A DNA stretch of 40,713 nucleotides from a virus (taxonomy: Duplodnaviria; Heunggongvirae; Uroviricota; Caudoviricetes): the IMG/VR virus record IMGVR_UViG_2671180360_000017; one strand, given 5' to 3'. The translations under genes and the position numbers were made by a program. Each line of letters begins with the position of its first letter. Within the stretch, counting starts at the first letter, position 1. Of the stretch, positions 5,013 through 39,608 are shown in pieces. The notes below the pieces were generated by a model. It was not told the DNA's origin and did no database searches. It worked only from the letters and a program-made list of their open reading frames with translations.

Positions 5013-5030
5013 TCCAAGTGAACTTTTATC

Positions 5031-5059: not shown

Positions 5060-5131
5060 TATGGTGTTCACAAAATACAAACGATCCGTATTCGTCCTGA
5101 TTAATCATCATTAAACGAGGAATGTTGCATC

Positions 5132-5353: not shown

Positions 5354-5385
5354 TTCGATTCTGAAATACATCAGAGGCATTGACC

Positions 5386-5895: not shown

Positions 5896-5902
5896 GGTGC
5901 TT

Positions 5903-6103
5903 ATGCTGACGAAAGAACCATCATTTGCATCGCTGCTGGTAAAGCAAAGCCCGGCAATGCACTACGGTCACGGCTGGATCATGGGTGAGGATGGAAAACG
6001 CTGGCATCCGTGCCGTTCACAAGATGAATTGCTGGCAGAACTATCTACGAAAAAACGGGGGAACAAATGGCTATTGAAGGCGCTGCGGCGACTGTTCCAT
6101 TAA
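5903..6103 (+). CDS. Hypothetical early protein (66 aa; fil-like position)
   Basis: ORF with RBS tgaggtg upstream of ATG 5903; early-operon synteny. Confidence 0.4.
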   Translation: MLTKEPSFASLLVKQSPAMHYGHGWIMGEDGKRWHPCRSQDELLAELSTKKRGNKWLLKALRRLFH

Positions 6104-6408
6104 GACCCGGTGAACGCCTGAATGGACTTAATCATATTGCGGAGTTAAGGGCGAAAGTTTTTGGTTTGAATATTGAGTCAGAGCTTGAGCGGTTTATTAA
6201 AGATATGCGTGATCCACGGGATATCAATAATGAACAAAATAAACGGGCACTGGCTGCCATATTCTTTATGGCAAAAATTCCAGCTGAACGACATAGCATC
6301 AGCATTAATGAGCTGACCACTGACGAAAAGCGGGAGTTGATTAAAGCAATGAATCATTTTCGTGCAGTGGTGAGCTTATTTCCCAGACGGTTAACCATGC
6401 CGAATTAA
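6067..6408 (+). CDS. Hypothetical early protein (113 aa)
   Basis: ORF with RBS ggggg upstream; early-operon synteny. Confidence 0.45.
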   Translation: MAIEGAAATVPLRPGERLNGLNHIAELRAKVFGLNIESELERFIKDMRDPRDINNEQNKRALAAIFFMAKIPAERHSISINELTTDEKRELIKAMNHFRAVVSLFPRRLTMPN

Positions 6409-6475
6409 CCAACTAATGAAATTAATGGCGTAAACCCGCCGGGCATCCCTTTATCTAAATTCAGGAGAATTGCTT

Positions 6476-6709
6476 ATGCGTAATATTGAAACCCTCACGA
6501 CCAAAACCGGACCGGATGATGCAGGTCTTAATCTTTTACTGACAGAGGCTCGTCTGGAAGAACGCCGGGCAAGGGCTGAAGCAATGGCTGCTCGCCTCGA
6601 TAGCCTGGCGTGTCATATCACCTCCCGCCAGCTAAACCACGTCGAAGCGGCAGAACTGCTGCGTGTGACTGCTGAAGCAATCCAGAACGAAGCGCAGGAG
6701 ATCCACTGA
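6476..6709 (+). CDS. Hypothetical early protein (77 aa)
   Basis: ATG at 6476 preceded by an aggag RBS; the ORF track start at 6470 is a TTG. Confidence 0.45.
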   Translation: MRNIETLTTKTGPDDAGLNLLLTEARLEERRARAEAMAARLDSLACHITSRQLNHVEAAELLRVTAEAIQNEAQEIH

Positions 6710-6936
6710 TGGCTGATGCAATGGATCTCGTACAGCAGCGCGTTGAAGAAGAACGCCAACGCCATATCCGTGCTGCCCGTGCCAAAACGCCGGGCGTGTC
6801 CCGCGTGCTTTGCGTTGAGTGTGAAGCGCCAATTCCGCCAGCACGCCGCCGTGCCATTCCTGGAGTGCAGCTTTGCATTACCTGCCAGGAAATCGCAGAG
6901 CTGAAAGGCAAACATTACAACGGAGGTGCTGTATGA
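6709..6936 (+). CDS. TraR/DksA-family C4 zinc-finger protein
   Basis: 75 aa with CVEC...CITC four-cysteine motif typical of phage TraR/DksA-like proteins; start overlaps the previous stop. Confidence 0.65.
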   Translation: MADAMDLVQQRVEEERQRHIRAARAKTPGVSRVLCVECEAPIPPARRRAIPGVQLCITCQEIAELKGKHYNGGAV

Positions 6937-7790
6937 GCACCATCCTGAAATGGGCGGGTAATAAAACCGCCATTATGTCCGAACTGAAAAAATACCTTCC
7001 TGCTGGCCCGCGACTGGTTGAACCTTTCGCGGGTTCTTGTGCTGTGATGATGGCGACGGATTACCCCAGCTATCTGGTTGCGGATATTAATCCTGATTTA
7101 ATCAACCTCTATAAAAAGATTGCCGCTGATTGCGAAGCGTTTATATCTCGTGCCAAAGTTTTATTTGAGGAAGCAAACAGTGAGCTGGCTTATTACAACA
7201 TAAGACAGGAGTTTAATTACTCAACTGAAATTACTGATTTCATGAAAGCGGTATATTTCCTGTATCTCAATCGTCACGGTTACCGTGGTTTATGTCGCTA
7301 TAACAAGAGCGGGCATTTCAACATTCCCTACGGTAATTATAAAAATCCGTATTTCCCTGAAAAAGAAATTCGCGCATTTGCAGAAAAGGCCCAGCGAGCA
7401 ACGTTTATCTGCGCCAGCTTTGATGAAACGCTGGCGATGTTGAAGGCGGGGGATGTGGTGTATTGCGATCCGCCGTATGACGGTACGTTTTCCGGCTATC
7501 ACACTGACGGCTTCACTGAAGATGACCAGTATCACCTGGCATCTGTTCTTGAACATCGGTCATCAGAAGGACATCCGGTCATTGTTTCTAACAGTGACAC
7601 ATCCCTGATCCGTTCGCTGTATCGCAATTTTACTCACCACTACATCAAGGCAAAACGCAGCATCGGTGTGGCAGCTGGCGAGGGTAAATCAGCAACAGAA
7701 ATCATTGCTGTTTCCGGGCCGCGCTGCTGGGTGGGATTTGATTATTCGCGTGGCGTGGATAGTTCTGCCGTGTACGGAGTACGTGCATGA
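6933..7790 (+). CDS. dam: DNA adenine methyltransferase (Dam-like, orphan)
   Basis: N-terminal KWAGNK S-adenosylmethionine-binding motif and DPPY catalytic motif; start taken at [11 protein letters not shown] (6933); no adjacent restriction endonuclease gene. Confidence 0.8.
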
Positions 7791-10201
7791 GTCATGCCGA
7801 TATGAACAACTGCTGCGGCTTTAACGAAGCTGCCGCATCGTTCTCATGGAACAGCCCGAAAAAGGCCATTAACCCTTATCTGGACCCGGTGGAAGTTGCG
7901 CCGGTTTCTACGCTTTCAAACCTGATCACTCTGTACGCTGCCGATAACGAGCAGGAACAGCTGCGCCGTGAGGCGCTGAGTGATCAGGTCTGGGAGCGTT
8001 ATTTCTTTAATGAATCCCGTGATCCTGTCCAGCGCGAAATGGAACAGGATAAGCTCATTAGTCGGGCAAAGCTGGCGCATGAGCAGCAGCGTTTTAATCC
8101 GGATATGGTCATTCTGGCGGACGTCAACGCCCAGCCTTCCCATATCAGCAAGCCGCTGATGCAACGTATTGAATACTTCAGCAGCCTGGGCAGGCCAAAG
8201 GCTTATTCCCGCTATTTACGTGAGACGATTAAGCCATGTTTGGAACGACTGGAGCATGTACGCGACAGTCAGCTATCTGCATCTTTTCGCTTTATGGCAA
8301 GCCATGAAGGGCTGGACGGCCTGCTGATCCTGCCTGAAATGAGTCAGGATCAGGTGAAACGCCTGTCCACCTTGGTAGCTGCGCATATGAGTATGTGCCT
8401 TGATGCCGCTTGTGGCGATTTGTATGCCACCGATGACGTTAAGCCAGAAGAAATCCGCAATACATGGGAAAGGGTGGCAGCGGAAACCCTGCGTCTGGAT
8501 GTCATCCCGCCTGCGTTTGAGCAACTCCGTCGGAAAAGAAACCGCCGTAAACCCGTGCCCTATGAACTCATTCCGGGTTCGCTGGCGCGTATGTTGTGCG
8601 CCGACTGGTGGTATCGGAAATTATGGAAGATGCGTTGCGAATGGCGGGAAGAGCAGTTGCGTGCAGTCTGCCTTGTCAGCAAAAAAGCATCTCCTTATGT
8701 CAGCTATGAAGCCGTGATGCATAAACGTGAGCAGCGCCGTAAGTCGCTGGAGTTTTTCCGTTCTCATGAACTGGTGAACGAAGACGGCGACACGCTGGAC
8801 ATGGAGGATGTGGTAAACGCCAGCAGCAGCAACCCAGCGCATCGCCGCAATGAGATGATGGCCTGTGTTAAAGGTCTGGAGCTTATCGCGGAAATGCGCG
8901 GTGACTGCGCCGTTTTCTACACCATCACCTGTCCGTCACGTTTCCATTCCACGCTAAACAACGGCAGGCCCAACCCAACCTGGACAAATGCGACGGTAAG
9001 ACAAAGCAGTGATTATCTGGTCGGCATGTTTGCTGCATTTCGTAAGGCGATGCACAAAGCCGGATTGCGGTGGTATGGCGTGCGGGTGGCTGAGCCGCAT
9101 CATGACGGTACAGTTCACTGGCACCTGTTGTGTTTTATGCGCAAAAAAGACCGCCGCACCATCACTGCATTACTGCGTAAGTTTGCCATCCGTGAAGACC
9201 GCGAGGAGCTGGGCAATAACACTGGGCCGCGCTTTAAGTCTGAGTTGATTAACCCGCGCAAAGGTACGCCAACAAGCTACATCGCGAAATACATCAGTAA
9301 GAACATTGACGGGCGTGGTCTGGCTGGCGAGATCAGCAAGGAAACGGGGAAATCCCTGCGTGATAATGCTGAATACGTTAATGCCTGGGCGTCTCTGCAT
9401 CGTGTTCAGCAATTCCGCTTCTTTGGCATTCCGGGGCGTCAGGCTTACCGTGAACTGCGATTGCTGGCTGGTCAGGCGGCAAGGCAACAGGGGGACAAAA
9501 AAGCAGGTGCGCCGGTACTGGATAACCCGCGCCTTGATGCCATTCTGGCTGCTGCTGATGCTGGTTGTTTTGCCACCTACATCATGAAGCAGGGTGGCGT
9601 ACTGGTTCCCCGCAAATATCACCTCATCAGAACTGCTTATGAAATCAACGAAGAGCCGACCGCCTATGGCGATCACGGCATTCGTATTTATGGCATCTGG
9701 TCACCTATTGCAGAGGGCAAGATCTGCACTCATGCCGTGAAGTGGAAAATGGTTCGTAAGGCCGTTGACGTTCAGGAGGCGGCAGCCGACCAGGGCGCTT
9801 GCGCCCCTTGGACTCGTGGCAATAACTGTCCCCTTGCTGAAAATTTGAACCAACAAGGGAAAGACAAATCAGCTGATGGGGATACCAGGACGGACATTAC
9901 CCGCATGGATGACAAGGAGTTGCACGATTACCTGCACAGTATGAGCAAAAAAGAGCGCCGGGAACTGGCTGCAAGGTTACGCCTGGTGAAACCGAAACGG
10001 CGTAAAGACTACAAACAGCGAATTACAGACCATCAGCGACAGCAGCTCGTCTATGAACTGAAGTCCAGAGGATTTGATGGCAGCGAGAAAGAGGTCGATT
10101 TACTCCTTCGCGGCGGCAGTATTCCGTCAGGAGCAGGCCTGCGTATCTTCTATCGGAACCAGCGTTTGCAGGAAGATGATAAGTGGCGAAACCTGTATTA
10201 A
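7787..10201 (+). CDS. A: Replication initiation protein gpA (rolling-circle nickase)
   Basis: 804 aa ORF at the P2 gene A position; tyrosine-containing motif [12 protein letters not shown]; overlaps the dam stop. Confidence 0.85.
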
Positions 10202-10293
10202 TTACGCGGGTTAACAATTCGTGCTCTTAATAATACCAGGCATATCAGGCTGATGAACGTAAAAAAACGTTTTACATCAGTAAGATTATTATA

Positions 10294-10313
10294 TACTGTA
10301 AATATAAACAGTG
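10294..10313. promoter_or_regulatory. LexA (SOS) box
   Basis: TACTGTAAATATAAACAGTG, a perfect CTGT-N8-ACAG consensus, about 40 bp upstream of the small ORF / dinI-like pair. Confidence 0.6.
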
Positions 10314-10354
10314 GTTATGCATACAGTATTGCTTGTGGTGTCATAGGAGGAAAG

Positions 10355-10543
10355 ATGCAGGACTATTTTTTGGAGTCTTTGAAGCTCCAGCGCATTGATT
10401 TTTTTCTTAAGCTTGTAGCGGCTAGTGAGTGTAGTGATGAAGAGAAGGGGCTGGCTTTGCAGTGGGTTTCTGAACTGACAGATGAACTCATGGCAAAAAT
10501 CAGAACCCACGAATACAACCGCTCAATGGATGTCATCAGCTGA
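10355..10543 (+). CDS. Small SOS-controlled protein (62 aa), possible Tum-like antirepressor
   Basis: ATG preceded by an aggagg RBS, directly downstream of the LexA box; function inferred only from position (186 tum is LexA-controlled). Confidence 0.45.
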   Translation: MQDYFLESLKLQRIDFFLKLVAASECSDEEKGLALQWVSELTDELMAKIRTHEYNRSMDVIS

Positions 10544-10553
10544 GGTGACTTTT

Positions 10554-10787
10554 ATGCGCATTGAAATAATGATCGATAAAGAGCAGAAGATTAGCCAGTC
10601 TACCCTGGATGCCCTTGAATCCGAGCTTTACCGCAATCTGCGCCCCCTGTATCCCAAAACGGTAATTCGTATCCGCAAAGGTAGCTCTAACGGTGTGGAA
10701 CTGACCGGACTGCAACTGGACGAAGAAAGAAAACAAGTGCTGAAAATTATGCAGAAGGTGTGGGAAGACGACTGCTGGCTGCATTGA
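10554..10787 (+). CDS. DinI-family protein
   Basis: 77 aa beginning MRIEIMIDK and ending WEDDCWLH, closely resembling E. coli DinI; gaggtg RBS. Confidence 0.75.
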   Translation: MRIEIMIDKEQKISQSTLDALESELYRNLRPLYPKTVIRIRKGSSNGVELTGLQLDEERKQVLKIMQKVWEDDCWLH

Positions 10788-10923
10788 TAGGTTTCGTTTG
10801 TAATGAGTCATGTTTTTTGAGTCCGATAGTAGACAGCTAGAGGGATAAATGATTAATAGATAGATTAAACATAGTGATGGGCGTAAAATCGCGCGCATTT
10901 TATTGGCAACGGATCTGAACTCA

Positions 10924-11817
10924 ATGGCGGATAAGACTCAATCAGTAAGTATTGTGTATCAAGGCAAAGCTCTCGACGATCATAAGATGGATATTCTTTC
11001 GTTTGCGAAAAGTTTGCAGGGGCTAGGTGAGGCTATCTACTCTGCAAATGAGATTGTAAACGGAGGGCGAGACATTGAAGTTAACGTTGACGCTGAATTG
11101 ATAGCCGGTTCCTTTGGGTTTGATATTGAGGTTGTACAACATCTAGCTAATGCTAAAGATGTTGTACAAATTTTAGGTTTGTCAGCCATTCCTTTAGCCG
11201 TTGGCGGTGCTACAGTTTTAGAGGTTCTCAAGAAGCTTAACGGGCGTAAGATCGACATAGTCGAGAAAGCTAACGGTAGTGACAAAGTTAAGCTGAAAGT
11301 CGATGGTGAAGAGATTGTTTGCTCTGAAGATGTCGAAAAAATCGTTAATGCCCCAGAGATTCGTAAGGCTGTTGACGCGTTTGTCAGACAGCCTCTGTTA
11401 CAAGATGGTATCGACAATTTTGTGGTAAAAAAATCGCGCACCTCTAAGAAAGAAATCCTCAAAATTCATAAAGATGAGGCAGAAGAGTTTAAGTCGCCAA
11501 AAGTTCTCTTTGAAACCAAAGAAGAAGTTGACGAATTTGAAACAACCGTGACATTCGTTTCGGCGCATACTGACAAAAAAAGTGGCTGGCGTGTTGAGTT
11601 TGGCGGTGAAAAGCGCAATGTCAGAATGGAAGATAATGAGTTCATCAAGCTTGTTACTGGACCAGACGCCCCCAAAATTTTTGGCGAATTGTTTGCTGTG
11701 AAGATGAAGAAAATTGTGAAAGATTCCGGTGGCCAGGTAGACGAAAAGTTATCGATCATCAAAGTGGGTCGACACTTTGCCGCCAAAGATAGAAAAATAA
11801 AACCTGATGCGGATTAA
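10924..11817 (+). CDS. Hypothetical soluble protein (297 aa from ATG 10924; 304 aa if the TTG at 10903 is used), first gene of the AT-rich cargo operon
   Basis: Long uninterrupted ORF in AT-rich DNA between dinI-like gene and the cos region; highly charged K/E/D-rich; no recognisable motif. Confidence 0.6.
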   Translation: MADKTQSVSIVYQGKALDDHKMDILSFAKSLQGLGEAIYSANEIVNGGRDIEVNVDAELIAGSFGFDIEVVQHLANAKDVVQILGLSAIPLAVGGATVLEVLKKLNGRKIDIVEKANGSDKVKLKVDGEEIVCSEDVEKIVNAPEIRKAVDAFVRQPLLQDGIDNFVVKKSRTSKKEILKIHKDEAEEFKSPKVLFETKEEVDEFETTVTFVSAHTDKKSGWRVEFGGEKRNVRMEDNEFIKLVTGPDAPKIFGELFAVKMKKIVKDSGGQVDEKLSIIKVGRHFAAKDRKIKPDAD

Positions 11818-11819
11818 AA

Positions 11820-12083
11820 ATGTCTATAGATATTAGTGTGTTAGGATGGTTGGGGCTGCTTGTTGCAGCTCCAGCTATATTTATAGGTGCTAGAGTGGCT
11901 ATACGTAGCCTGCTCGATCGAGTTATTGTCGAAACAAAAGTTTCTATCACTTATACTGATGCAAACAAAAATGTCTATAAAACAAATATTTATATAAACA
12001 ATGATGATGAGTTAATAAAGCTCATCGATGATATAGCAGAGAAAAATAAGCGTGAGAGGAAGGAGTCAGCCTCTCATGCCTGA
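11820..12083 (+). CDS. Small membrane protein (87 aa, one N-terminal transmembrane helix)
   Basis: Starts 3 nt after the previous stop; hydrophobic segment VLGWLGLLVAAPAIFIGARVAI followed by a charged tail. Confidence 0.55.
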   Translation: MSIDISVLGWLGLLVAAPAIFIGARVAIRSLLDRVIVETKVSITYTDANKNVYKTNIYINNDDELIKLIDDIAEKNKRERKESASHA

Positions 12084-12492
12084 ACAAAAGAAAACAAGCG
12101 GTAAAGCAGTCGGTGTTACAGGTGGCGGCGGTGTAGGCCTTTTCCTAATAAAGCTGGCTAGCTTCATTACAGATCCAACATGGAAAGACCTTTACATTGC
12201 TTCAATACCGATGGTGTCAATTCTTTTAAGCGAAGTTTTTACTTTTGCATGGACGATTTATGCTGTTGATCCGCAAGAAATCAAACTGAAAAGGCGGTTG
12301 AAGGCTCTGAAGAAGCAAGCCGAAGCAGTTTTAAATGCACCATCGTCCCCTGTTTCTCCAGAAATGCGAGAGAAAGCGCAGGCTCGTTACGACGTGATCT
12401 GTGGAATTGAAATGGGAATTTACCCCCTCTCAATTGTAAATACGCTAGATGGAAAAGTATCCCCCACAGCGCAAACGCCGGACGTTAAATAG
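12076..12492 (+). CDS. Small membrane protein (138 aa, two predicted transmembrane helices)
   Basis: aggaagga RBS upstream of ATG 12076, overlaps the previous gene end; hydrophobic segments GVGLFLIKLASFI and IASIPMVSILLSEVFTFAWTIYAV. Confidence 0.55.
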   Translation: MPEQKKTSGKAVGVTGGGGVGLFLIKLASFITDPTWKDLYIASIPMVSILLSEVFTFAWTIYAVDPQEIKLKRRLKALKKQAEAVLNAPSSPVSPEMREKAQARYDVICGIEMGIYPLSIVNTLDGKVSPTAQTPDVK

Positions 12493-12553
12493 CAGTTTCT
12501 ACTTTGCATGACTATGCTGCATGAAATCGCATGATCGTTTGAGGATCGTTTTT

Positions 12554-12762: not shown

Positions 12763-14031
12763 ATGGAAATTTTTGATACGAATGATATCTTTGGGCTCTC
12801 AAGAGATTTGCCACTTAATTACATTGAAAGACCTGATGTTGATTTCAAACTTAAACAGGAATTACAAGCAAAGAAACATATTGTTATTTACGGCAGTTCA
12901 AAGCAGGGTAAGACTTGCGTAAGAAAACACTGTATTAATTCTGATGATTATATTTTGGTGCAGTGTTCGAATCGTTCTGATGTATCTGAATTGAATGCAA
13001 GTATTTTAAAAAGAGCTGGATTCGAAATAACTCAGTCTACCAAGAAAGGTATTACGGGGAAAAATAAAATAATCGCATCAATAAAAACTTCTATTTTGGG
13101 TTTTGTGGCGAGTGCCGGAGGCGAGATCGAAGATACGAAATCTCATGAACAAGTAACCGCGCCTTTAGAAATTGATGTTGATGATGTTAATGATGTTATA
13201 GCGGCTTTAAAATCTATAAATTTCAAGAAGATTATCGTTCTTGAGGATTTTCATTATATGCCTTTCGAAACTCAAAGAGATTTTTCGATCGCATTAAAAG
13301 CCTTTCATGAAACATCAAGCATTATTTTTGTAATTGTTGGAGTTTGGCTAGAAGATAATCGGCTCATTGTTTACAATGGTGACTTAACTGGCAGGATTAT
13401 TTCTGTTAACGCAGACAAATGGCAAGATTCTGAACTGGAGATGGCAATTGATAAAGGAGGTTTACTCCTTAACATTGATTTTGATCCAACTTTCAAAGCA
13501 GATGTAGTAACACACTGTCTCAATAGTATTTATTTAGTGCAAGAAGCATGTAGGCGTGCGTGTATTGAATGCGGAATATCAGAGACTCAGCAAACAAAAA
13601 GAACTATTGGAGCTGGTTTGGATGGAAAGGATATCATTGCAAAAATTGTTAATGACCAATCGGCTCGTTACAATTCTTTCCTTATTAATTTTTCAGATGG
13701 ATTTCAAGATACTGAACTTCAAATGCATAAATGGATTTTATATCCTGTCCTTTCATCAACCATTAGTGAACTTGAATTAGGTTTGAAATTTAAAGATATA
13801 AGGGCAATATTACAAAGTGTACATCCAAGAGGGGAGAAGTTAAACCTGGGTAATGTTACTCAGTCGTTACAATCAACGGCGTCTTTGCAAATAAAGAAAA
13901 ATATAATGCCTATTATTTTGGATTATGACCAAACAAATAGGAAACTGAATGTTGTTGATAAAGGCTTCCTAATATGGTTGCAACATCAAGATATCAAAGA
14001 TCTAAAGGATGATTTGGAGTTGCCAAATTAA
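12763..14031 (+). CDS. P-loop NTPase of unassigned family (422 aa), orphan cargo gene
   Basis: Walker A GSSKQGKT and Walker B-like IIVLEDFH; AT-rich; convergent with Q and separated from it by an inverted repeat. Confidence 0.7.
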   Translation: MEIFDTNDIFGLSRDLPLNYIERPDVDFKLKQELQAKKHIVIYGSSKQGKTCVRKHCINSDDYILVQCSNRSDVSELNASILKRAGFEITQSTKKGITGKNKIIASIKTSILGFVASAGGEIEDTKSHEQVTAPLEIDVDDVNDVIAALKSINFKKIIVLEDFHYMPFETQRDFSIALKAFHETSSIIFVIVGVWLEDNRLIVYNGDLTGRIISVNADKWQDSELEMAIDKGGLLLNIDFDPTFKADVVTHCLNSIYLVQEACRRACIECGISETQQTKRTIGAGLDGKDIIAKIVNDQSARYNSFLINFSDGFQDTELQMHKWILYPVLSSTISELELGLKFKDIRAILQSVHPRGEKLNLGNVTQSLQSTASLQIKKNIMPIILDYDQTNRKLNVVDKGFLIWLQHQDIKDLKDDLELPN

Positions 14032-14078: not shown

Positions 14079-15113
14079 TTAGAATTCAAGTGTATACGGT
14101 TTGAATTGGATTATATTCTCATTAGACCAACTATTTAATCCTTTTATTCTTTCCTGTAATGGTATTAGCTCATTCCTCACAAACACACAGCTAGCCTTTT
14201 CCACATCCCCAAATCCTCCAACATTATTAGGTATAATCCCCATCATTTGCGGTGGTACGCGGTGCGCAGCCATCATGTCATCGCGGCTGACATTTTTGAT
14301 ATTCAGAAACTCATCCTTCGCCGCAACTTCTGACAGAGGAATGATCTGAAGCCCATCCTTTTTGCCATTAGGTGAGTACATAAACAGGTTGCGGAAATTG
14401 CCTGGACCTTTGGCGCTTTTCATCGCGTTGCGGAGGTTGTTCACATCCTCCTGGTTCTGCGCCGCATCGGTCATGTACATGATGAAGCCTGCATGACTGC
14501 CGTTAATGTAATACTTGCGGCGGAACAGCGTGGCGGACTCGTTGAGCAAAGCGGATGGGATGGCAGAAAGATAGCCGGGCAGGCCGTAGATCTCCTGATT
14601 AATATCCGGTTCCATCAGATGAAAAATGCTGCCTTTCGTGAACTGATACGGCTGGGTTGTCATACCGTATTGCATAAACCAGTAGGTATCCAGGTCTAAC
14701 CCGCGTCGGGTGTATTTTGCCAGAGCAGGCTCAAGGGCTATAACTTCACCGAAGCGGTTCGTGCGTTTCTCCAGGTAGGCGTTACCAAATACCAGATAGT
14801 CCTGCACAAAACGTGAAAAAGCCTGCTGGCTGAGCAGCGGGTGAGGGATGTAGGTACTGGTCAGAATGTTGCATTTCACCGCAATTGGTGAGCTGTGATG
14901 CACGGCGGCGCGGAAGGTTCGTGCCAGTCCGTCAAAGCTGACGGGCGGCTCATACCAGCGATCCATCTGTACGCATTCCACATAGTCCAGCAGTTCACGG
15001 CGGTCCAGAACAGGAACGGGATCGCCAAAGCTGAATGCTTCGGCTGAAGTCTGGCTTTTATGCTTGAGCTGATTCGTCGCCGCAGCGCGGTTTTTCTTAC
15101 TCTTTCCCATCAA
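14079..15113 (-). CDS. Q: Portal protein gpQ
   Basis: 344 aa, same length as P2 Q as I recall it; first gene of the leftward late operon, followed by the terminase gene. Confidence 0.85.
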   Translation of the reverse strand: MMGKSKKNRAAATNQLKHKSQTSAEAFSFGDPVPVLDRRELLDYVECVQMDRWYEPPVSFDGLARTFRAAVHHSSPIAVKCNILTSTYIPHPLLSQQAFSRFVQDYLVFGNAYLEKRTNRFGEVIALEPALAKYTRRGLDLDTYWFMQYGMTTQPYQFTKGSIFHLMEPDINQEIYGLPGYLSAIPSALLNESATLFRRKYYINGSHAGFIMYMTDAAQNQEDVNNLRNAMKSAKGPGNFRNLFMYSPNGKKDGLQIIPLSEVAAKDEFLNIKNVSRDDMMAAHRVPPQMMGIIPNNVGGFGDVEKASCVFVRNELIPLQERIKGLNSWSNENIIQFKPYTLEF

Positions 15114-16876
15114 AAAATCTCCACAATATTGCTGGTATTGGCGGATTCGCCCTGCAGCGGTTCGTTAAACAGTGCGTGCATCGTTGCCCAGGCCAGATCG
15201 GCGTGGCTGGCTTCTTCGCTGCGGCTGGCTTCATAGGTCGGGCGGTTGCCGCTGGCGGTGGTGGCGCGACGGATTGCCATGAATGACTGCGCAATGTCGG
15301 TGTGCCCGGCGTCAAACTCCAGACGGCGGTGGCTGATAATGTCGTAGGCCTTGAGTACCAGGGCGTTTTTAACATTGGGGTTATAGACAAACTCCCGGAC
15401 AGCAGGAAAGAACGCTTTCACGTTCTCATAAACCCCGTGACCAACGCCGGTCGAGTCGATACCGATATAGGTCACGTTGTACTGTTCGGTCAGTTTTTTG
15501 ATGGCGTCAGCCTGGGCGCGGAAGTCCATCCCGCGCCACTGGTGACGTTCAAGAATGCGAAACTTACCGCCTGGCACGGCTGGCGGTGCCACCACCACGC
15601 ATCCGGCGCTGTCGCCGTTCTGCGTACCTTTTGCCGGGTCATAACCGATCCACACTTCGCGCCAGCCAAACGGGCGCAGGGCCAGAGCATGAAAGTCGGT
15701 CCAGACTTCCCAACTGTCCACCATGCACGCCTGCAGCTCGCTGAGCGGGAACACGGACGCGAGATCGTCCACGAACTCACACATCAGCAGGTTCTGGTAT
15801 TCGTCCGGGCTGTATTCCATGCGCAACTGGTCCAGGTCGAACAGGTTACAGCCGCCGCGCACTGCATCTTCCACGGTGACTATCTGGCGGTATTGCCCGT
15901 CTGCACACAGCAGGCCGGGAGCCAGATTGCTGTGGGACAGGTCGATGTCCACCTTATCGGCTTTGTTGCGCCCACGGTTGAACAGCGCACCGGACCAGAA
16001 CGGATAAGCACTGTGGGTCAGGCTGGATGGCGTGGAAAAATAGGTCTGTCGCCATTTCTTGTGAATAGCCATACCGGAAGCCACTTTGCGCAGCTCCTGG
16101 AATTTCGGTATCCAGAAATATTCATCCAGATACAGGTTGCCGTGATAACTCTGGGCAGTGCGGGCATTGGTGCCGAGGAAATACAGTGTGGCCCCGTTGG
16201 GAAGCACCATCGGATCGCCTTTCAGCTCCACCTCCACTTCTTTGGCAAAGTCGATGATGTACTGTTTGAAGACGTGGGCCTGTGCCTTACTGGCAGAAAG
16301 GAAAATCTGGTTACGTCCGGTAAGCAGGGCGTCAATCAGGGCTTCACGGGCAAAATAGAAGGTCGCGCCGATCTGGCGTGACTTCAGCAGGTTGCGGATG
16401 CGGTTGGTTTTTCCGGCTTCCCACCAGTGGCGCTGGTAGTTGAACATGGAGGAATGGAAAATTTCTTCCAGCTTCTCAATCTGGTCATCGGTGAAAACAT
16501 TCTTTTCAGGCTGACGGCGTGGGCCTTTGTTGCGGTTGGCGACGTTAGGGTTTAAGTCGGCTTCGTTGCCGCCATTGTTAAACTTGCCGATCCGCGCGTG
16601 GCGCTCAGACTGGCGCGCCAGCAGGTCAATCTCTTTGAAATCTTTCCCTTCTTTGTGCTCCTTCATGATGAGCTGGCAGTAGCGTGCGGCGGTGGTGAGC
16701 TGCATCTGATCCAGAGGCCCATAGTCACCCCACTTGTCGCGTTTTTTCCAGCTGTGAACGGTTGCAACTTTCTCGCCCAGCATTTCAGCAATGCGGGCTA
16801 CGCGGTATCCCTGAAAGTACAGCAGCATGGCCTGCCGACGGGGATCGAGATCTGCGGGTGTCAGTGTGGTGTTCAT
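15110..16876 (-). CDS. P: Terminase large subunit (ATPase) gpP
   Basis: 588 aa (P2 P about 590); Walker A-like KSRQIGAT; overlaps the Q start. Confidence 0.85.
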   Translation of the reverse strand: MNTTLTPADLDPRRQAMLLYFQGYRVARIAEMLGEKVATVHSWKKRDKWGDYGPLDQMQLTTAARYCQLIMKEHKEGKDFKEIDLLARQSERHARIGKFNNGGNEADLNPNVANRNKGPRRQPEKNVFTDDQIEKLEEIFHSSMFNYQRHWWEAGKTNRIRNLLKSRQIGATFYFAREALIDALLTGRNQIFLSASKAQAHVFKQYIIDFAKEVEVELKGDPMVLPNGATLYFLGTNARTAQSYHGNLYLDEYFWIPKFQELRKVASGMAIHKKWRQTYFSTPSSLTHSAYPFWSGALFNRGRNKADKVDIDLSHSNLAPGLLCADGQYRQIVTVEDAVRGGCNLFDLDQLRMEYSPDEYQNLLMCEFVDDLASVFPLSELQACMVDSWEVWTDFHALALRPFGWREVWIGYDPAKGTQNGDSAGCVVVAPPAVPGGKFRILERHQWRGMDFRAQADAIKKLTEQYNVTYIGIDSTGVGHGVYENVKAFFPAVREFVYNPNVKNALVLKAYDIISHRRLEFDAGHTDIAQSFMAIRRATTASGNRPTYEASRSEEASHADLAWATMHALFNEPLQGESANTSNIVEIF

Positions 16877-16922
16877 GGCACAAACCTACAGCCTTGAATG
16901 AAGGCTTTCCCCGCCTGCGGTT

Positions 16923-16940
16923 TGTGTGGTTGTCGGTACA
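16923..16940. promoter_or_regulatory. Ogr-type late-promoter activator site (TGT-N12-ACA) in the divergent P / O region
   Basis: tgtgtggttgtcggtaca in the 142 bp interval between divergent P and O. Confidence 0.45.
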
Positions 16941-21860: not shown

Positions 21861-21993
21861 CGGTGATCTGAGCGCATTGCTGGATGAAACGGAAGCCGCC
21901 TGGGCGGTCTGTGCAGATAAAGTGGACATGATTATTGCGTGTCAGGAGCGAAACAGTGAACAAACCACAATCCCTGCGCCACGCCCTCAATAA
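21703..21993 (+). CDS. lysC: LysC (Rz1-like outer-membrane lipoprotein spanin)
   Basis: 96 aa with lipobox LTLSGC; begins inside lysB in a different frame, the typical Rz/Rz1 arrangement. Confidence 0.6.
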   Translation: MRTRIYAAGLIPLCLLTLSGCENVRHSPEVQLTVSGCPRVTPCRLDQAAPHTNGDLSALLDETEAAWAVCADKVDMIIACQERNSEQTTIPAPRPQ

Positions 21994-22387
21994 AGCGGTG
22001 CCTTATGTCCGCAATAACCCGGACAAACTGCATCTGTTTGTGGATAACGGTTCGCTGGTTGCTACAGGGGCCAGCTCCATGTCATGGGAGTATCGTTACA
22101 CCCTGAACGTAGTGGTTGAGGATTTCAGCGGCGACCAGAATCTGTTGATGGCCCCGGTTTTGCTGTGGCTGCGGGATAACCAGCCCGATGCCATCAATAA
22201 CCCGGCGTTACGGGAAAAGTTATTCACCTTTGAGGTGGATATTCTGCGCAATGATGTCTGTGATATCAGCCTGAACCTGCAACTGACGGAGCGTGTGCTG
22301 GTCAGCACTGACGGCAGTGTGTCGAGCGTTGAAGCGATAACGGAACCCGATGAACCTGAAGAAATGTGGACGGTGAAACGTGGCTGA
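21956..22387 (+). CDS. R: Tail completion protein gpR
   Basis: N-terminus NKPQSLRHAL resembles P2 R; start uncertain (GTG at 21956 or upstream at 21935). Confidence 0.7.
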   Translation: MNKPQSLRHALNKAVPYVRNNPDKLHLFVDNGSLVATGASSMSWEYRYTLNVVVEDFSGDQNLLMAPVLLWLRDNQPDAINNPALREKLFTFEVDILRNDVCDISLNLQLTERVLVSTDGSVSSVEAITEPDEPEEMWTVKRG

Positions 22388-22823
22388 ATTGCAGAAAGTG
22401 GACGACTGGCTGAGTGCCTTACTGGCGAATCTGGAGCCAGCTGCAAGAAGTCGCATGATGCGCCAACTGGCACAGGAGCTGCGCCGGACACAGCAGCAAA
22501 ACATCAGGATGCAGCGCAATCCAGATGGCAGTAGTTATGAGCCGCGACGGGTAACAGCGCGCAGTAAAAAAGGCCGCATCAAACGTCAGATGTTTGCGAA
22601 GCTGCGCACCACAAAATACCTGAAAACTGCCGCCAGCGCCGATTCTGCCAGTGTGCAGTTTGAAGATAAGGTGCAGCGCATTGCCCGTGTTCACCATTAT
22701 GGACTGCGTGATCGTGTCAGTAAACGTGGGCCGATAGTTCATTATTCCAGACGATGCTTGCTAGGTATTAATGAGCCTATTAAAAAAGAAGTTGAGAGAT
22801 TTTTGATATATTGTATTTCATAA
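22380..22823 (+). CDS. S: Tail completion protein gpS
   Basis: 147 aa (P2 S about 150); synteny after R; C-terminal codons run into AT-rich cargo DNA. Confidence 0.7.
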   Translation: MAELQKVDDWLSALLANLEPAARSRMMRQLAQELRRTQQQNIRMQRNPDGSSYEPRRVTARSKKGRIKRQMFAKLRTTKYLKTAASADSASVQFEDKVQRIARVHHYGLRDRVSKRGPIVHYSRRCLLGINEPIKKEVERFLIYCIS

Positions 22824-22863
22824 CTTGCGTATATTGTTGCCCAGTGGCGATCTGGGCTTTATT

Positions 22864-24732
22864 TTAATTTTCAATGCTTTGCTTTAATTTATCTATTGCG
22901 GGAGTTAAACAATCATTTATGAGCTCATCGATTTGTAATGATAATATATTTGAGTTTATTTGAGTTTTCTTTTCAATTAGCTTTCTAATTAGCTCACGGT
23001 GGAAAAAACGCTCTGCAGAAAGCTCTTTTAGATAAGGGGAGTTGTTGTATCGGTTTTTTATAGCATAGCCAAAGAAATGCATCTCGGTTGAGTCTACCAG
23101 TATTTTTGTTAGTTGTTCAGCATCACCAAAATAAAGAACTGGTTTGTCGTGAAATGAATAAATATCTTTGTTGTTGAAATTTAGATGTGCGTAATATTCA
23201 TGATTTCCGGCCTGTATTAATTTGAATATCTTTTGAGCGTCTTGGCTAAGTTGATATGCAATTAACACATTTTTCTTTTGTTCTATGTAATTAACAAGCT
23301 CCTTGAATTCCCTAGTTTCTTTGCAATGAAAAGTTAATCCTCCCCATCGCTCATCCTTAATGTCTTCATCAAAAATTTCATAACTAGTTTGTATCATTCC
23401 TTTTTCTGCTAAAATATCAACAGCAGAGTGGGCTAAGTTTGTTAAATAGTGTTCGTTGATGGGTTTTATGTGTTCTCTGGATAAATGAAGTAATAATCCG
23501 TAAATATGCTTAAGAACATGCTCGTTCAATATTTCAAAATTAATAAGCGTATGAAGTGTTGAATTGTAATTTTCCTCAAATTCTGTGTATTTTAATCGAT
23601 CATAATTCCAAAGTTGTGTCCATGGCTCAATTGTTTTATTAGAAACACTGACAAATGTTATTAATTCAGATATTATTTTTTCTTGATTGATTTTCTGATT
23701 GTCAATTATATCGATCCAGGTATCCTCGTCTAAGATTAAATTTGACAAATAAGTTGTACCATATTTTTCAATTAAATTGGATGTGTATTTATTATCATCA
23801 TCTATTTTATATGTTAACAAGTCAGAAACGGTTCGTTTTATTTTATTAGATTCAAAATAGAGTATAAAATGTAATTGATATAATCTGAGTGTCAAATCTG
23901 AATTTTGCTGAAACTGTGCTGGTAATATTTTGAATATTCTTTCAAAAAAAGAAATTTGCCTTTCAATTAATCTAATGTTATTACACTCTGAAAGAGTGAG
24001 TAAGCTCTCAATATTTTTTATGTTCAGAATGGTGTTGAGTTCGCTAGTTATATTTTTTAGAAAATATTCGTAGGCGTGAGAATGTTGAGGTTGATATTTG
24101 AAAGTTATACCTATAACTTTTTCTTTTGCATCTAAATAAATACCATCATGATTTTTATTTCTAGCGGGGTTTAATATTTCTCTCTCATTGGCGATAATCA
24201 AAACCTTGCATTCTTTTTCTTCAACGAAATTATTTATATAACCAAATATAGAATTCCAATCTAATTCGCAGCGTTCAAGATCATCAAATATCAATATGGT
24301 GTTTTCTGGTGAGTAGTAAAAGTCTTTAATACTTACGTTGGGTAGTTCTGGGGAGCCCTCTACACTTGTAACGAATGAATCACTTAAATCAATCTTAAGT
24401 GTGCCTTTAATTAGTGCCTTAGTTAGTGTGCCAGCAAGCAACATGCCTTTAGATGAAAGGAAGGGATGCATTTGCTTGAAAATTATTTCGTCAATTTGTT
24501 CGGTGGATTTTATTCCATATAATGAGATCATTAATGGCTTAACTTCCCCTTTTAGTGATTCTTCATTCATTAATTTACGGACAAACCATGTTTTCCCGCT
24601 TCCCCATTCGCCGTCAATCATTACTGCGAAATTAGGGGATTTTTCAAGACCCACTAAATAATTAAGATATGAGGTTAGCTCTTCATTGTAATTCATTGGA
24701 TTGTAAGACCCTTCATACAATTTGAAAATCAC
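22864..24732 (-). CDS. KAP-family P-loop NTPase (622 aa), antisense cargo gene between S and V
   Basis: Walker A GEWGSGKT (KAP-type GxWGxGKT) and Walker B ILIFDDLE; strongly AT-rich; opposite strand to the flanking late genes; alternative start at Met 13 (24696). Confidence 0.75.
   Translation of the reverse strand: MIFKLYEGSYNPMNYNEELTSYLNYLVGLEKSPNFAVMIDGEWGSGKTWFVRKLMNEESLKGEVKPLMISLYGIKSTEQIDEIIFKQMHPFLSSKGMLLAGTLTKALIKGTLKIDLSDSFVTSVEGSPELPNVSIKDFYYSPENTILIFDDLERCELDWNSIFGYINNFVEEKECKVLIIANEREILNPARNKNHDGIYLDAKEKVIGITFKYQPQHSHAYEYFLKNITSELNTILNIKNIESLLTLSECNNIRLIERQISFFERIFKILPAQFQQNSDLTLRLYQLHFILYFESNKIKRTVSDLLTYKIDDDNKYTSNLIEKYGTTYLSNLILDEDTWIDIIDNQKINQEKIISELITFVSVSNKTIEPWTQLWNYDRLKYTEFEENYNSTLHTLINFEILNEHVLKHIYGLLLHLSREHIKPINEHYLTNLAHSAVDILAEKGMIQTSYEIFDEDIKDERWGGLTFHCKETREFKELVNYIEQKKNVLIAYQLSQDAQKIFKLIQAGNHEYYAHLNFNNKDIYSFHDKPVLYFGDAEQLTKILVDSTEMHFFGYAIKNRYNNSPYLKELSAERFFHRELIRKLIEKKTQINSNILSLQIDELINDCLTPAIDKLKQSIEN
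24702..24719. promoter_or_regulatory. Ogr-type late-promoter site (TGT-N12-ACA) for the V operon (P_V)
   Basis: tgtaagacccttcataca about 45 bp upstream of the V start; lies within the first codons of the KAP ORF if its first ATG is used. Confidence 0.45.
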
Positions 24733-24764
24733 TATTTTCTTTTGATTTCATGCAAACTGCAACC

Positions 24765-25343
24765 ATGAACGCACAACTCACAGAAATCATGCGCCTTATC
24801 ACCAACCTGATCCGCACAGGTGTAGTCACCGAAGTGGACCGGGAAAACTGGCTTTGTCGGGTGAAAACGGGCGACCTTGAAACCAACTGGATTAACTGGC
24901 TGACGCTGCGCGCGGGTAATGCCCGCACATGGTGGCGACCATCGGAAGGTGAGCAGGTGGTGCTGCTGAGTCTGGGCGGCAATCTGGAAACCGCCTTTGC
25001 GCTGCCCGCTGTCTATTCGAATCAGTTCGCACCACCGTCGGCGTCGATGGACGCCTGTGTGACAGAACATCCTGACGGTGGCTGGTTTGAATACGAACCC
25101 GCTACCGGGCGCTGGTATGTCAGGGGAATCAAATCCATGGTCATTGAAGCTGCCGACAACATCACCCTGAAAACCAGTGAGTTTGTGCTGGAGGCCGACC
25201 GCACGCGTATTAACAGCGAAATGGTAATCAATGGTGGCGTTATCCAGGGCGGCGGTGCAATGAGTTCTAACGGAATTGTGGTTGATGCACATCAGCATAC
25301 TGGCGTCCTGAAAGGCGGCGACACAACCGGAGGCCCGGTATGA
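24765..25343 (+). CDS. V: Baseplate spike / assembly protein gpV
   Basis: N-terminus aligns with P2 V (LIRTGVVTEVD ... CRVKTG); alternative start at 24750. Confidence 0.8.
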   Translation: MNAQLTEIMRLITNLIRTGVVTEVDRENWLCRVKTGDLETNWINWLTLRAGNARTWWRPSEGEQVVLLSLGGNLETAFALPAVYSNQFAPPSASMDACVTEHPDGGWFEYEPATGRWYVRGIKSMVIEAADNITLKTSEFVLEADRTRINSEMVINGGVIQGGGAMSSNGIVVDAHQHTGVLKGGDTTGGPV

Positions 25344-28703: not shown

Positions 28704-29305
28704 TGAATAATGCAGAATTAAATAGTGAATTGATTGCTACTGCGGCAGGGAATATTACCGTTTATAACTATGATTGTGAAACACGAGAATATATTTCCAC
28801 ATCAACTGAATATCTTGCTGTGGGTGTCGGTATCCCGGTATGTTCCTGTCTGGATACACCAGGTATACATAAGGCGGGTTATGCAATATGCCGCTCTGTG
28901 GATTTAAATTCATGGGAATATGTGCCAGACCATCGAGGTGAAATTGTCTATAGCACCGAAACGGGAGATACCAAAGAAATCACAGTGCCAGGCGACTATC
29001 CCGAAAATACAACCACTATCGCCCCGTTAACGCCATACGATAAATGGGATGGTGAGAAATGGGTGACCGATATTGAGGCACAGCATAGCGCCGCAGTAGA
29101 CGCGGCAGAAGCGCATCGCCAATCGCGGATTGATGCTGCAATGGCTTCCATCAGTCTGATTCAGCTGAAATTGCAGGCCGGACGTAAACTGACGCAGGCA
29201 GAAACAACCCGGCTTAACGCTGTGCTGGATTACATTGACGCGGTGGTGGCAACAGATACCAGCACCGCGCCGGATGTCATCTGGCCTGAACTACCGGAGG
29301 CGTAG
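28703..29305 (+). CDS. G: Tail fibre assembly protein (Tfa / gpG-like), copy 1
   Basis: 200 aa with the Tfa C-terminal motif DTSTAPDVIWPELP; immediately follows H. Confidence 0.8.
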   Translation: MNNAELNSELIATAAGNITVYNYDCETREYISTSTEYLAVGVGIPVCSCLDTPGIHKAGYAICRSVDLNSWEYVPDHRGEIVYSTETGDTKEITVPGDYPENTTTIAPLTPYDKWDGEKWVTDIEAQHSAAVDAAEAHRQSRIDAAMASISLIQLKLQAGRKLTQAETTRLNAVLDYIDAVVATDTSTAPDVIWPELPEA

Positions 29306-30645: not shown

Positions 30646-31219
30646 CATCCGGCGCGGTGCTGGTATCTGTTGCCACCACCGCGTCAATGTAATCCAGCAC
30701 AGCGTTAAGCCGGGTTGTTTCTGCCTGCGTCAGTTTACGTCCGGCCTGCAATTTCAGCTGAATCAGACTGATGGAAGCCATTGCAGCATCAATCCGCGAT
30801 TGGCGATGCGCTTCTGCCGCGTCTACTGCGGCGCTATGCTGTGCCTCAATATCGGTCACCCATTTCTCACCATCCCATTTATCGTATGGCGTTAACGGGG
30901 CGATAGTGGTTGTATTTTCGGGATAGTCGCCTGGCACTGTGATTTCTTTGGTATCTCCCGTTTCGGTGCTATAGACAATTTCACCTCGATGGTCTGGCAC
31001 ATATTCCCATGAATTTAAATCCACAGAGCGGCATATTGCATAACCCGCCTTATGTATACCTGGTGTATCCAGACAGGAACATACCGGGATACCGACACCC
31101 ACAGCAAGATATTCAGTTGATGTGGAAATATATTCTCGTGTTTCACAATCATAGTTATAAACGGTAATATTCCCTGCCGCAGTAGCAATCAATTCACTAT
31201 TTAATTCTGCATTATTCAT
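30617..31219 (-). CDS. Tail fibre assembly protein (Tfa / gpG-like), copy 2 (inverted)
   Basis: Identical to the 28703-29305 product. Confidence 0.7.
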   Translation of the reverse strand: MNNAELNSELIATAAGNITVYNYDCETREYISTSTEYLAVGVGIPVCSCLDTPGIHKAGYAICRSVDLNSWEYVPDHRGEIVYSTETGDTKEITVPGDYPENTTTIAPLTPYDKWDGEKWVTDIEAQHSAAVDAAEAHRQSRIDAAMASISLIQLKLQAGRKLTQAETTRLNAVLDYIDAVVATDTSTAPDVIWPELPEA

Positions 31220-31697: not shown

Positions 31698-31752
31698 TGC
31701 AGAGATAATGGCTAACTGGCATCATCCCCGGTTTTTATTCAGGGGATTGATC

Positions 31753-32319
31753 ATGCTTATTGGCTATGTACGCGTGTCAACAAATGACCAGAACACCGAT
31801 TTGCAACGTAATGCACTGAACTGCGCGGGATGTGAGCGGATTTTTGAGGATAAAATCAGTGGCACTAAGTCCGACAGACCGGGGCTGAAAAAACTGCTCA
31901 GGACACTATCGGCAGGAGACACGCTGGTTGTCTGGAAGCTGGACAGGTTGGGGCGCAGTATGCGGCATCTTGTTACGCTGATAGAAGAGTTGCGTCAGCG
32001 TGGCGTGAATTTCCGAAGCCTGACTGACAGTATTGATACCAGCACCCCAATGGGCCGTTTCTTTTTTCATGTCATGGGGGCCCTGGCTGAAATGGAACGC
32101 GAACTGATAGTTGAACGTACCAGGGCAGGGCTGGCTGCAGCTCGTGCTAAAGGCAGAGTAGGTGGACGCCGTCCTAAGTTGACTACCGAACAGTGGGCAC
32201 AGATTGGGCGTTTACTCGAGGCCGGAGAATCAAGACAGCGTATTGCACTGATTTTTGATGTAGGCGTTTCTACCATTTATAGAAAATTTCCGGCAAATAA
32301 GAGCAATGAATCCCCCTGA
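31753..32319 (+). CDS. Serine DNA invertase (Hin/Gin/Cin/Pin family)
   Basis: Start at MLIGYVRVSTNDQ (catalytic Ser motif); very close to Salmonella Hin along the whole length including the C-terminal HTH; 188 aa. Confidence 0.85.
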   Translation: MLIGYVRVSTNDQNTDLQRNALNCAGCERIFEDKISGTKSDRPGLKKLLRTLSAGDTLVVWKLDRLGRSMRHLVTLIEELRQRGVNFRSLTDSIDTSTPMGRFFFHVMGALAEMERELIVERTRAGLAAARAKGRVGGRRPKLTTEQWAQIGRLLEAGESRQRIALIFDVGVSTIYRKFPANKSNESP

Positions 32320-32367: not shown

Positions 32368-32385
32368 TGTGTGAATAACGGTACA
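32368..32385. promoter_or_regulatory. Ogr-type late-promoter site (TGT-N12-ACA) for the FI operon (P_F)
   Basis: tgtgtgaataacggtaca about 80 bp upstream of FI. Confidence 0.45.
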
Positions 32386-39299: not shown

Positions 39300-39389
39300 T
39301 TCTTCGCAATGGAGAACTTTTAAGTTTGCAAAATGGAATAATGCGGTATCATTATTATGAATTTAGCAAAAATGGGGAGAACTCGAAAA

Positions 39390-39608
39390 ATGATGATTTG
39401 CCCACTGTGTGGAAGTGCCGCCCATACTCGCAGCAGTTTTCAGGTATCTTCATTGACCAAAGAGCGTTACAACCAGTGCCAGAACATTAACTGCAGCCAT
39501 ACTTTTGTTACCCATGAAACTTTTGTTCGTTCGATTGCAACGCCAAAAGAGTCAAATCCGGTTCAGCCGCATCCAATGAAATCAGGACAGGTGGCGCTCT
39601 CTCTTTGA
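39390..39608 (+). CDS. ogr: Ogr zinc-finger late-gene activator
   Basis: CPLCGSAAH ... CQNINCSHTF four-cysteine motif and overall similarity to P2 Ogr; start taken at MMICPLCG. Confidence 0.8.
   Translation: MMICPLCGSAAHTRSSFQVSSLTKERYNQCQNINCSHTFVTHETFVRSIATPKESNPVQPHPMKSGQVALSL

Follow-up and report, generated by a model that had tools for sequence, protein, structure and literature searches.

A soluble KAP-family NTPase encoded in an exchangeable S-V cassette of a P2-like prophage, a candidate anti-phage defence protein predicted to share its control region with the late promoter pV

Here we present an analysis of a gene for a KAP-family P-loop NTPase that lies antisense between the tail genes S and V in the IMG/VR virus record IMGVR_UViG_2671180360_000017, a P2-like E. 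coli prophage with the usual late-gene order; the whole stretch of 40,713 nt is called the window below. By profile match the protein belongs to PDC-S49, an already catalogued candidate defence family, and its gene is predicted to form part of one exchangeable cassette together with the end of S, a terminator and a private copy of the late promoter pV. We propose by analogy, and with modest confidence, that this soluble, single-gene NTPase is an anti-phage defence protein made in the lysogen and sharing its control region with pV. An earlier note on the same DNA proved essentially right, with two corrections, one to the start codon and one to the idea of a simple insertion, in place of which we find a swapped cassette. 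The family and the hotspot were already known in outline; what is new is the anatomy of the cassette, with its position-conserved private pV, and the predicted structure of a soluble KAP NTPase in which no effector was detected.

In the proposed mechanism, the C-terminal alpha-solenoid of the protein would recognise a component of the infecting phage, binding and hydrolysis of nucleoside triphosphate in the P-loop module would power a switch in conformation or oligomeric state, and this switch would block phage development without a separate enzymatic effector. This sensor-switch function was proposed because of the analogy with the KAP proteins of the RADS study and with the system named Reve. 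KAP NTPases with uncharacterised C-termini have been found to protect against phages and to need their Walker B motif (PMC12632615), and Reve, a P4-borne single-gene KAP system, protects E. coli (preprint 10.64898/2026.02.27.708500).

The genes and protein features on which the analysis turns are the following.

22380..22823, plus strand: tail completion gene S (147 residues; Pfam Phage_tail_S, 9.4e-37)
22864..24696, minus strand: KAP-family P-loop NTPase gene (PADLOC PDC-S49, phrog_4740; 610 residues plus stop)
24589..24612, minus strand: Walker A motif GEWGSGKT (residues 29-36 of the 610-residue protein)
24307..24468, minus strand: conserved 54-residue insert between beta2 and beta3 of the P-loop domain (residues 77-130)
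24271..24297, minus strand: Walker B motif ILIFDDLER (residues 134-142 of the 610-residue protein)
22867..24084, minus strand: all-helical C-terminal region, NTPase lid and alpha-solenoid (residues 205-610)
24765..25343, plus strand: baseplate gene V, first of the V operon (192 residues; Pfam Phage_base_V and Apex; PGAP start)

Gene R (21935-22387), S and V were identified by Pfam. Between S and V, a minus-strand open reading frame (ORF) at 22864-24732 reads as 622 residues from a GTG, in DNA of 26-34% GC (23001-24500) against 54-59% in the late genes on either side. The AT-rich antisense ORF of 622 residues that the earlier note had described is therefore present, but we place the true start at the ATG at 24696, Met13 of that frame, which gives a predicted protein of 610 residues. 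This assignment was made because PGAP annotates the 610-residue form in other E. coli genomes, because the Pfam and PADLOC alignments of the 622-residue ORF begin at residue 14 or later, because family members are about 610-650 residues long, and because in two loci whose homologues are 60-61% identical the frame is interrupted by stop codons 5' of the Met13 equivalent. The upstream stops, the profile starts and the PGAP call likewise rule out the GTG at 24732; for V, an upstream ATG at 24750 was rejected in favour of 24765. The gene is present at 99.2-99.9% nucleotide identity in 10 of 5426 complete E. coli genomes, and in the four E. coli neighbourhoods examined it occupies the same S-V slot, annotated as "P-loop NTPase fold protein".

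Profile searches, which the earlier note had put forward as the check on family membership, placed the protein firmly: Pfam KAP_NTPase (PF07693), with a cut-off of 20 bits, scored 59 (E 5.9e-16) in an alignment of residues 20-240 to profile positions 6-253 of 293, with an AAA_22 match alongside. Three PADLOC models of PDC-S49 matched over nearly the whole of each profile (E 4.1e-135, 4.2e-133 and 4.5e-74), the best of them spanning residues 14-618 of the 622-residue ORF. Among the PHROGs the protein falls in phrog_4740 (4.4e-61), where the function is given as unknown, and a search of NCBIfam returned nothing useful. A large protein collection yielded 554 homologues, nearly all of them full length; the closest cluster, at 98% identity, comprises 279 sequences of 610 residues named from Salmonella and E. 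coli, and distant members with 25-30% identity come from Vibrio, Pseudomonas, Flavobacterium and many cyanobacteria. The Walker A sequence that the earlier note had read from the DNA is encoded at the coordinates listed above, and both KAP motif forms, GxWGxGK[ST] and hhhhDDL[DE]R, are found in the protein. In an alignment of 54 homologues reaching down to 25% identity, the Walker A residues G29, W31, G32, G34 and K35 and the Walker B residues F137, D138, D139, E141 and R142 were invariant, as were N170/E171, R242 and, in the C-terminal part, W359, R549 and Y550.

An AlphaFold2 model built on the homologue alignment (mean predicted local distance difference test score, pLDDT, 83) showed a P-loop alpha/beta domain at residues 1-200 and an entirely helical region at residues 205-609, comprising the NTPase lid and an alpha-solenoid of about 360 residues; a helical region after the NTPase domain is a KAP-family trait. 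Foldseek returned the ORC ATPase module as the top match, and in the model the protein takes the form of an ORC/Cdc6-like AAA+ (AAA+/STAND-like) NTPase followed by an alpha-solenoid. The stretch from beta2 to beta3 that comprises residues 79-127 was predicted with pLDDT below 50; the insert there measures 54 residues in nearly all of the 54 homologues and its sequence is strongly conserved, with the consensus HPxLSSKG...K...K...D. Transmembrane helices within the P-loop domain are typical of many, but not all, KAP members. In the window protein no transmembrane segment was found, the maximum 19-residue Kyte-Doolittle window being 0.98, and no amphipathic helix was found in insert residues 77-130, with a hydrophobic moment of at most 0.31. 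On these values, membrane anchoring through the P-loop insert was rejected, and the protein is best classed as a predicted soluble KAP variant that still falls within the family despite having no inserted transmembrane helices. We found no enzyme fold (nuclease, TIR, SIR2, protease or other) in the protein, which has no N-terminal domain, the NTPase starting at residue ~20, and no winged-helix or other DNA-binding domain was detected in it.

The structural match to initiators raises an alternative, namely that the protein acts on DNA, loading or polymerising in an ATP-dependent manner on foreign or replicating DNA and so blocking replication or packaging. Its AAA+ module groups structurally with ORC/Cdc6/DnaA/TnsC/MuB, which assemble on DNA, and the conserved Lys-containing insert sits, by topology, at what we take to be the position of the initiator-specific motif of ORC/Cdc6/DnaA. 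We regard this as unlikely, if still worth weighing: the equivalence of the insert is drawn from topology and the general layout of AAA+ clades, the insert is poorly modelled and has a net charge of only +3 over 29 residues, a DNA-binding domain such as a winged helix was not detected, and NLR-type NTPases score nearly as well.

The shared KAP motifs suggest another way of acting. PifA of plasmid F is the classical KAP NTPase that excludes phage T7. A PifA-like abortive infection, in which the protein senses a phage protein and damages the membrane or the energy state so that the cell dies before the phage completes its cycle, would fit the GxWGSGKT and DDLxR motifs that PifA and the window protein have in common. 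We consider it improbable, given that the profile comparison aligns only 43 columns, that there is no pifC-like partner, and that the hydropathy and hydrophobic-moment values above speak against a membrane-active protein; moreover, the only KAP protein to have been examined over a range of multiplicities of infection is reported to be non-abortive (PMC12632615).

The control features around the gene are as follows.

22839..22867, plus strand: intrinsic terminator-like hairpin GCCCAG-N7-CTGGGC and T-run after S (terminator scan; hairpin 22839-22857)
24697..24764, no strand: 68-bp divergent control region, from the cargo ATG to the V ATG (sequence comparison)
24702..24719, no strand: predicted Ogr/Delta-type activator dyad TGTAAGACCCTTCATACA of the late promoter pV (from its conserved position and the P2 record)
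39357..39608, plus strand: Ogr/Delta zinc-finger late activator, the expected binder of the dyad (Pfam Ogr_Delta, 6.7e-22)

The TGT-N12-ACA motif that the earlier note had located at 24702-24719 is exactly there, although with the Met13 start, which that note had allowed for as an alternative, it falls outside the KAP ORF, 5 nt upstream of its start codon. The motif is no commoner in the window than chance (11 matches, 10.9 expected), and enrichment was therefore rejected as evidence for an Ogr site and replaced by a test of positional conservation. The centre of the dyad is 54.5 nt upstream of the V ATG. In the P2 reference record the order is S, terminator, antisense non-essential orf30, "activator binding site, activation of pV promoter" and V, with V-operon transcription starting on the A of the V ATG and the centre of the activator site about 55 nt upstream. 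In close insert-free relatives such as Klebsiella phage 4LV2017 and an E. coli phage-plasmid, S is followed by 4 nt, a perfect dyad TGTATCAGCACTGATACA, 46 nt and the V ATG. Furthermore, each of the 80 IMG/VR loci with a V of 95% identity or more has one dyad centred 54.5-57.5 nt upstream of V, in 17 sequence versions with otherwise unrelated surroundings. We estimate the chance of a match within that four-position range at about 0.001 per independent sequence; with about 15 independent cassette types, coincidence is ruled out. The P2 layout, the insert-free relatives and the constancy of position thus assign 24702-24719, as a prediction from comparison, to the pV activator site, and the Ogr-type site that had been proposed for the V operon is upheld, the phage also encoding the cognate Ogr. 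Further dyads in the window lie at 16865-16882 and 16923-16940, in the divergent P/O region, and at 32368-32385, upstream of a probable sheath gene at 32462, which are the places where the P/O and F late promoters are expected; the centre of the second is 55.5 nt from the P ATG (16876), a geometry like that of pV.

Comparison with the insert-free relatives showed where the foreign DNA begins and ends: similarity is lost within S, at ~22720, and returns precisely at the V ATG, and identity to the empty-site locus L001 drops from above 90% to 33-60% at ~22715-22725. The last ~34 codons of S in the window (from ~22720) accordingly lie within the AT-rich exchanged DNA. Each cargo type in the set has its own AT-rich last ~20 residues of S, in DNA of 27-47% GC, and its own pV region. 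Since the S tail and pV differ with each cargo type, we define 22720-24764 as one predicted exchangeable cassette consisting of S tail, terminator, antisense cargo and its own pV, which would presumably be exchanged by homologous recombination within S and V. The terminator-like element overlaps the stop codon of the cargo, and the P2 record has a "putative rho-independent terminator for O operon" at the matching relative position; no known RNA families were found in 22300-25300. The description of the gene as inserted between S and V is thus correct as to where the cargo sits and incomplete as to the event, a swap in which the 3' end of S and all of pV are exchanged as well. Its equation with the P2 orf30 position was also sound, the P2 record showing S, terminator, antisense orf30, pV site and V in the same arrangement.

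The interval is a hotspot in the wider family of P2-like prophages, the comparison of which the earlier note had recommended. An empty 68-bp S-V junction was found at 49 of the 80 loci and an insert at 28, representing ~16 cargo types of 550-2229 bp and 31-37% GC, with the cargo ORF antisense in 27 of the 28. The KAP gene is present at a single locus, L014, identical to the window. Other cargoes include AriA and AriAB (PARIS-like ATPase and ATPase-Toprim), an AbiU-like protein, a SIR2 protein of ThsA/LmuA type, and PDC-S15. No PADLOC match was obtained for the cargoes of L024, L041, L057 and L066 or for P2 orf30 itself (L004 440-1225), proteins of 189-449 residues, and by eye the cargoes of L015, L016, L022 and L027 resemble small membrane proteins; both groups are candidates for new functions in a defence hotspot. 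On the strength of these loci we regard S-V as a real hotspot, by sequence comparison, with high cargo turnover between conserved anchors and with defence genes among the cargo. Together with the PDC-S49 match, the recognised defence genes that sister phages carry in this slot support the label of candidate defence gene that had been given to the KAP ORF. A 2026 preprint has described a P2 defence hotspot within the late genes, accounting for 16% of P2 systems, and cites earlier accounts of accessory genes among tail genes; Rousset et al. 2022 do not mention orf30 and hence are no source for the S-V hotspot. Two single loci are recorded here for their own sake: the only cargo on the late-gene strand is a 401-residue SIR2-like protein (L055 3645-5000), and at L057 (3767-5000) a truncated S stands beside the cargo, so that this prophage may be defective.

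Homologues of the KAP protein occur well beyond this slot. A 647-residue PDC-S49 member (L102 8947-10890; 28% identity, E 3e-156) occupies the gpA-portal hotspot in a different P2-like prophage of E. coli, on the plus strand and followed by an unclassified 384-residue ORF; with members in S-V and in gpA-portal, PDC-S49 therefore uses both P2 hotspots. In V. cholerae a homologue forms a single-gene cassette between ~160-nt repeats (L011 1558-3734) in an array of small DUF645/DUF3709 cassettes, a context that we take to be superintegron-like. Two Pseudomonas homologues (L095 6240-14557; L096) belong to an island that carries large serine recombinases and interrupts a gene of the Mg-chelatase family, probably comM; the L096 island also has HigB/antitoxin and an N6/N4 methyltransferase. 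These islands fit the reported link between serine recombinases and defence genes (PMC12632615). A cyanobacterial homologue adjoins MazE/PemK, and the context of a Flavobacterium homologue was uninformative. Across the contexts examined no conserved neighbour was found, and the KAP gene is accordingly classed, on this comparison, as a mobile, single-gene unit.

The gene might instead serve the phage in a narrower way than broad defence, through competition with P4-type satellites, exclusion of P2-like phages only, or as a "moron" acting on host physiology. P4 Delta activates P2 pV at the same dyad, so the control region is shared with a promoter that a satellite also uses; P2 orf30 and several S-V cargoes have no defence signature; and retention of the gene in a decayed prophage, described below, points to some benefit without specifying its kind. 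We consider such a role very improbable, since the family is spread across many phyla and non-P2 contexts (the integron-like array, the serine-recombinase island, cyanobacterial chromosomes) and the same-slot neighbours are classical broad defence genes.

Evidence that the gene is maintained came from L005, a different P2-like prophage whose own S-V slot contains, in antisense orientation, a homologue of 61% identity. Nucleotide identities between the window and L005 are as follows.

Phage backbone (5' part of S, V, and V-J): 79-84%
KAP gene: 66%
KAP codon positions 1/2/3: 69/80/49%
68-bp control region (24697-24764): 81%
3' end of S: 51%

From the codon-position identities it follows that the KAP protein is under purifying selection. 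The control region is conserved far better than synonymous sites (81% vs 49%), and all 68 of its positions are the same in four other E. coli copies. The gene itself is intact in those four copies, and indeed in all close relatives examined; the frameshifts that the earlier note had named as a sign of a decayed insertion were not seen. L008-L010 (~2800-12500) hold a ~10-kb decayed P2-like remnant amid chromosomal transporter genes, with an integrase, CI, an S fragment, W/J/I pieces and Ogr. The same remnant holds an intact 618-residue KAP homologue (60% identity) with the same control region, which suggests that the KAP gene is retained while the phage decays. That the gene is a silent or decaying horizontal acquisition with no current function, as its AT-rich, foreign-looking DNA, its rarity in E. 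coli and the lack of a clear promoter might suggest, is highly improbable and already largely refuted by the intact copies, the 98% cluster of 279 full-length sequences, the codon pattern against the 61% homologue and the invariance of the catalytic residues in 54 homologues.

Returning to the proposed defence protein, its expression in the lysogen has to be reconciled with pV. A gap of 5 nt separates the cargo ATG from the dyad, whose spacer contains a purine-rich Shine-Dalgarno-like GAAGGG; consequently the 5' untranslated region must cross the dyad, and the promoter has to overlap either the pV core or the beginning of V. The same constraint holds for roughly half of the other S-V cargo types, with an ATG less than ~30 nt from the dyad. 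Given this forced overlap with pV, late transcription activated by Ogr and transcription of the cargo are probably mutually exclusive: in this model, activated pV with its bound RNA polymerase would exclude leftward initiation, and the cargo would be on in the lysogen and off late in the lytic cycle. Two other candidates were set aside. A sigma-70 match near the start (-10 at 24705-24700) would place the transcription start within the ATG or too near it, and L005 does not conserve its -35; and Ogr is unlikely as a leftward activator of the cargo, since the corresponding start, at ~24655 (55 nt leftward from the centre of the dyad), would lie within the ORF.

Several observations weigh against the defence reading or limit it. 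No convincing sigma-70 promoter was found for the cargo (10 sites, with 9.9 expected from shuffled sequence), the sole promoter candidate conserved in L005, TTGCAG-17-GAAAAT, is weak and was not relied on, and the Shine-Dalgarno-like GAAGGG is 12 nt from the ATG. The protein has no recognisable effector domain to explain how a phage would be stopped. P2 orf30 and several S-V cargoes match no defence model, and location does not prove function. The KAP gene is rare, at 10 of 5426 complete E. coli genomes, and among the near-identical copies the synonymous and non-synonymous changes are about equal in number, the counts being small. Finally, PDC families are described as mostly unvalidated, PDC-S49 being a "guilt-by-embedding" candidate, and none of its members was reported as tested in the literature searched. 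It is with these points in the balance that we hold anti-phage defence by a soluble single-gene KAP NTPase to be somewhat favoured.

A more ambitious combination of these ideas can also be formulated. S-V would be a "lysogeny-on, lysis-off" socket, with a pV in each cassette placed such that the Ogr/Delta-bound dyad overlaps the promoter and 5' untranslated region of the cargo; the cargo would be switched off as soon as Ogr or P4 Delta starts the late genes, avoiding self-targeting, and the KAP protein, having no enzymatic effector, would stop phages by assembling on foreign DNA in an ATP-dependent, ORC/Cdc6-like manner by means of its insert. We offer this joint proposal as a long shot.

If the gene protects, it would validate PDC-S49, a soluble KAP NTPase in which no effector can be recognised and which has hundreds of homologues in several bacterial phyla, and would add to the recent evidence for KAP NTPases as a general anti-phage class. 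Also, the S-V junction emerges as a compact hotspot with precise boundaries, made up of the S tail, a terminator, a single gene that is mostly antisense, and a private pV. With "LLG...stop" of S and "dyad + ~46 nt + ATGAAYGCACA" of V as anchors, short contigs can be mined for its cassettes, and about one third of the cargo types match no known defence model. Additionally, the overlap of cargo control with a late promoter provides a simple model for how prophages might time their defence genes.

The main P2 hotspot of the window, between gpA (7787-10201) and the portal gene (14079-15113), has a GC content of 34-44% and holds two further PADLOC candidates, PDC-S42 at 10903-11817 (7.8e-44) and PDC-S59 at 12763-14031 (4.8e-72). 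The prophage would thus carry three candidate, unvalidated defence genes in two hotspots. Elsewhere in the window, two chance matches to TGT-N12-ACA in the tail-fibre region (28841-28858 and 31064-31081, ~2.2 kb apart) are exact reverse complements, TGTTCCTGTCTGGATACA and TGTATCCAGACAGGAACA; as a pair they resemble the crossover sites at which a Cin/Hin-type tail-fibre segment would invert, and a 203-residue ORF at 31708-32319 may be the recombinase of this putative segment.

Comparison with known systems places the cassette and its protein as follows. The P2 orf30 locus is like the window in order and orientation, with an antisense, non-essential, AT-rich gene and an activator site ~55 nt from the V ATG, but the orf30 product (261 residues) is unrelated to the KAP protein and the distance from ATG to dyad is ~16-19 nt in P2 against 5 nt in the window. 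Within PDC-S49 the protein is typical, with a full-length profile match, a single-gene build and a length in the ~610-650 residue range, and we noted no structural difference. It has no sequence-level membership in either ORC/Cdc6 or STAND/NLR and lacks the winged-helix or N-terminal effector domain: the NACHT profile, with 14.7 bits, fell short of its cut-off of 26.7 and covered just 21 residues at the P-loop, no Avs or NLR models were among the PADLOC matches, and where the STAND/NLR proteins (Avs, bNACHT) have a tripartite build, only NTPase and helical repeat are present here, with no effector domain.

Among KAP proteins, PifA resembles the window protein in its Walker motifs (DDLDR in PifA) and its long helical C-terminus. 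It differs in its 741 residues and in having the pifC repressor gene directly upstream in F, in contrast to the single-gene cassette, and orthology was rejected, BLASTP aligning only the Walker motifs and hhalign giving 79.6% probability over its 43 columns. The RADS KAP proteins, EF_KAP and three from metagenomes, are similar in being a single KAP protein with a C-terminus of unknown fold; experiments demonstrated their anti-phage activity, which in EF_KAP requires Walker B, and unlike the window protein EF_KAP has two N-terminal transmembrane helices (PMC12632615). Reve is similar in its KAP and AAA_22 Pfam matches and its ORC ATPase top Foldseek hit, and is carried by a P2-dependent satellite; EF_KAP and Reve were compared with the window protein by description. 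Tmn, a transmembrane anti-phage KAP NTPase that synergises with Gabija, likewise combines a KAP NTPase with alpha-superhelical regions, but it has two transmembrane helices in the P-loop domain, at the place where the window protein has its conserved, soluble 54-residue insert.

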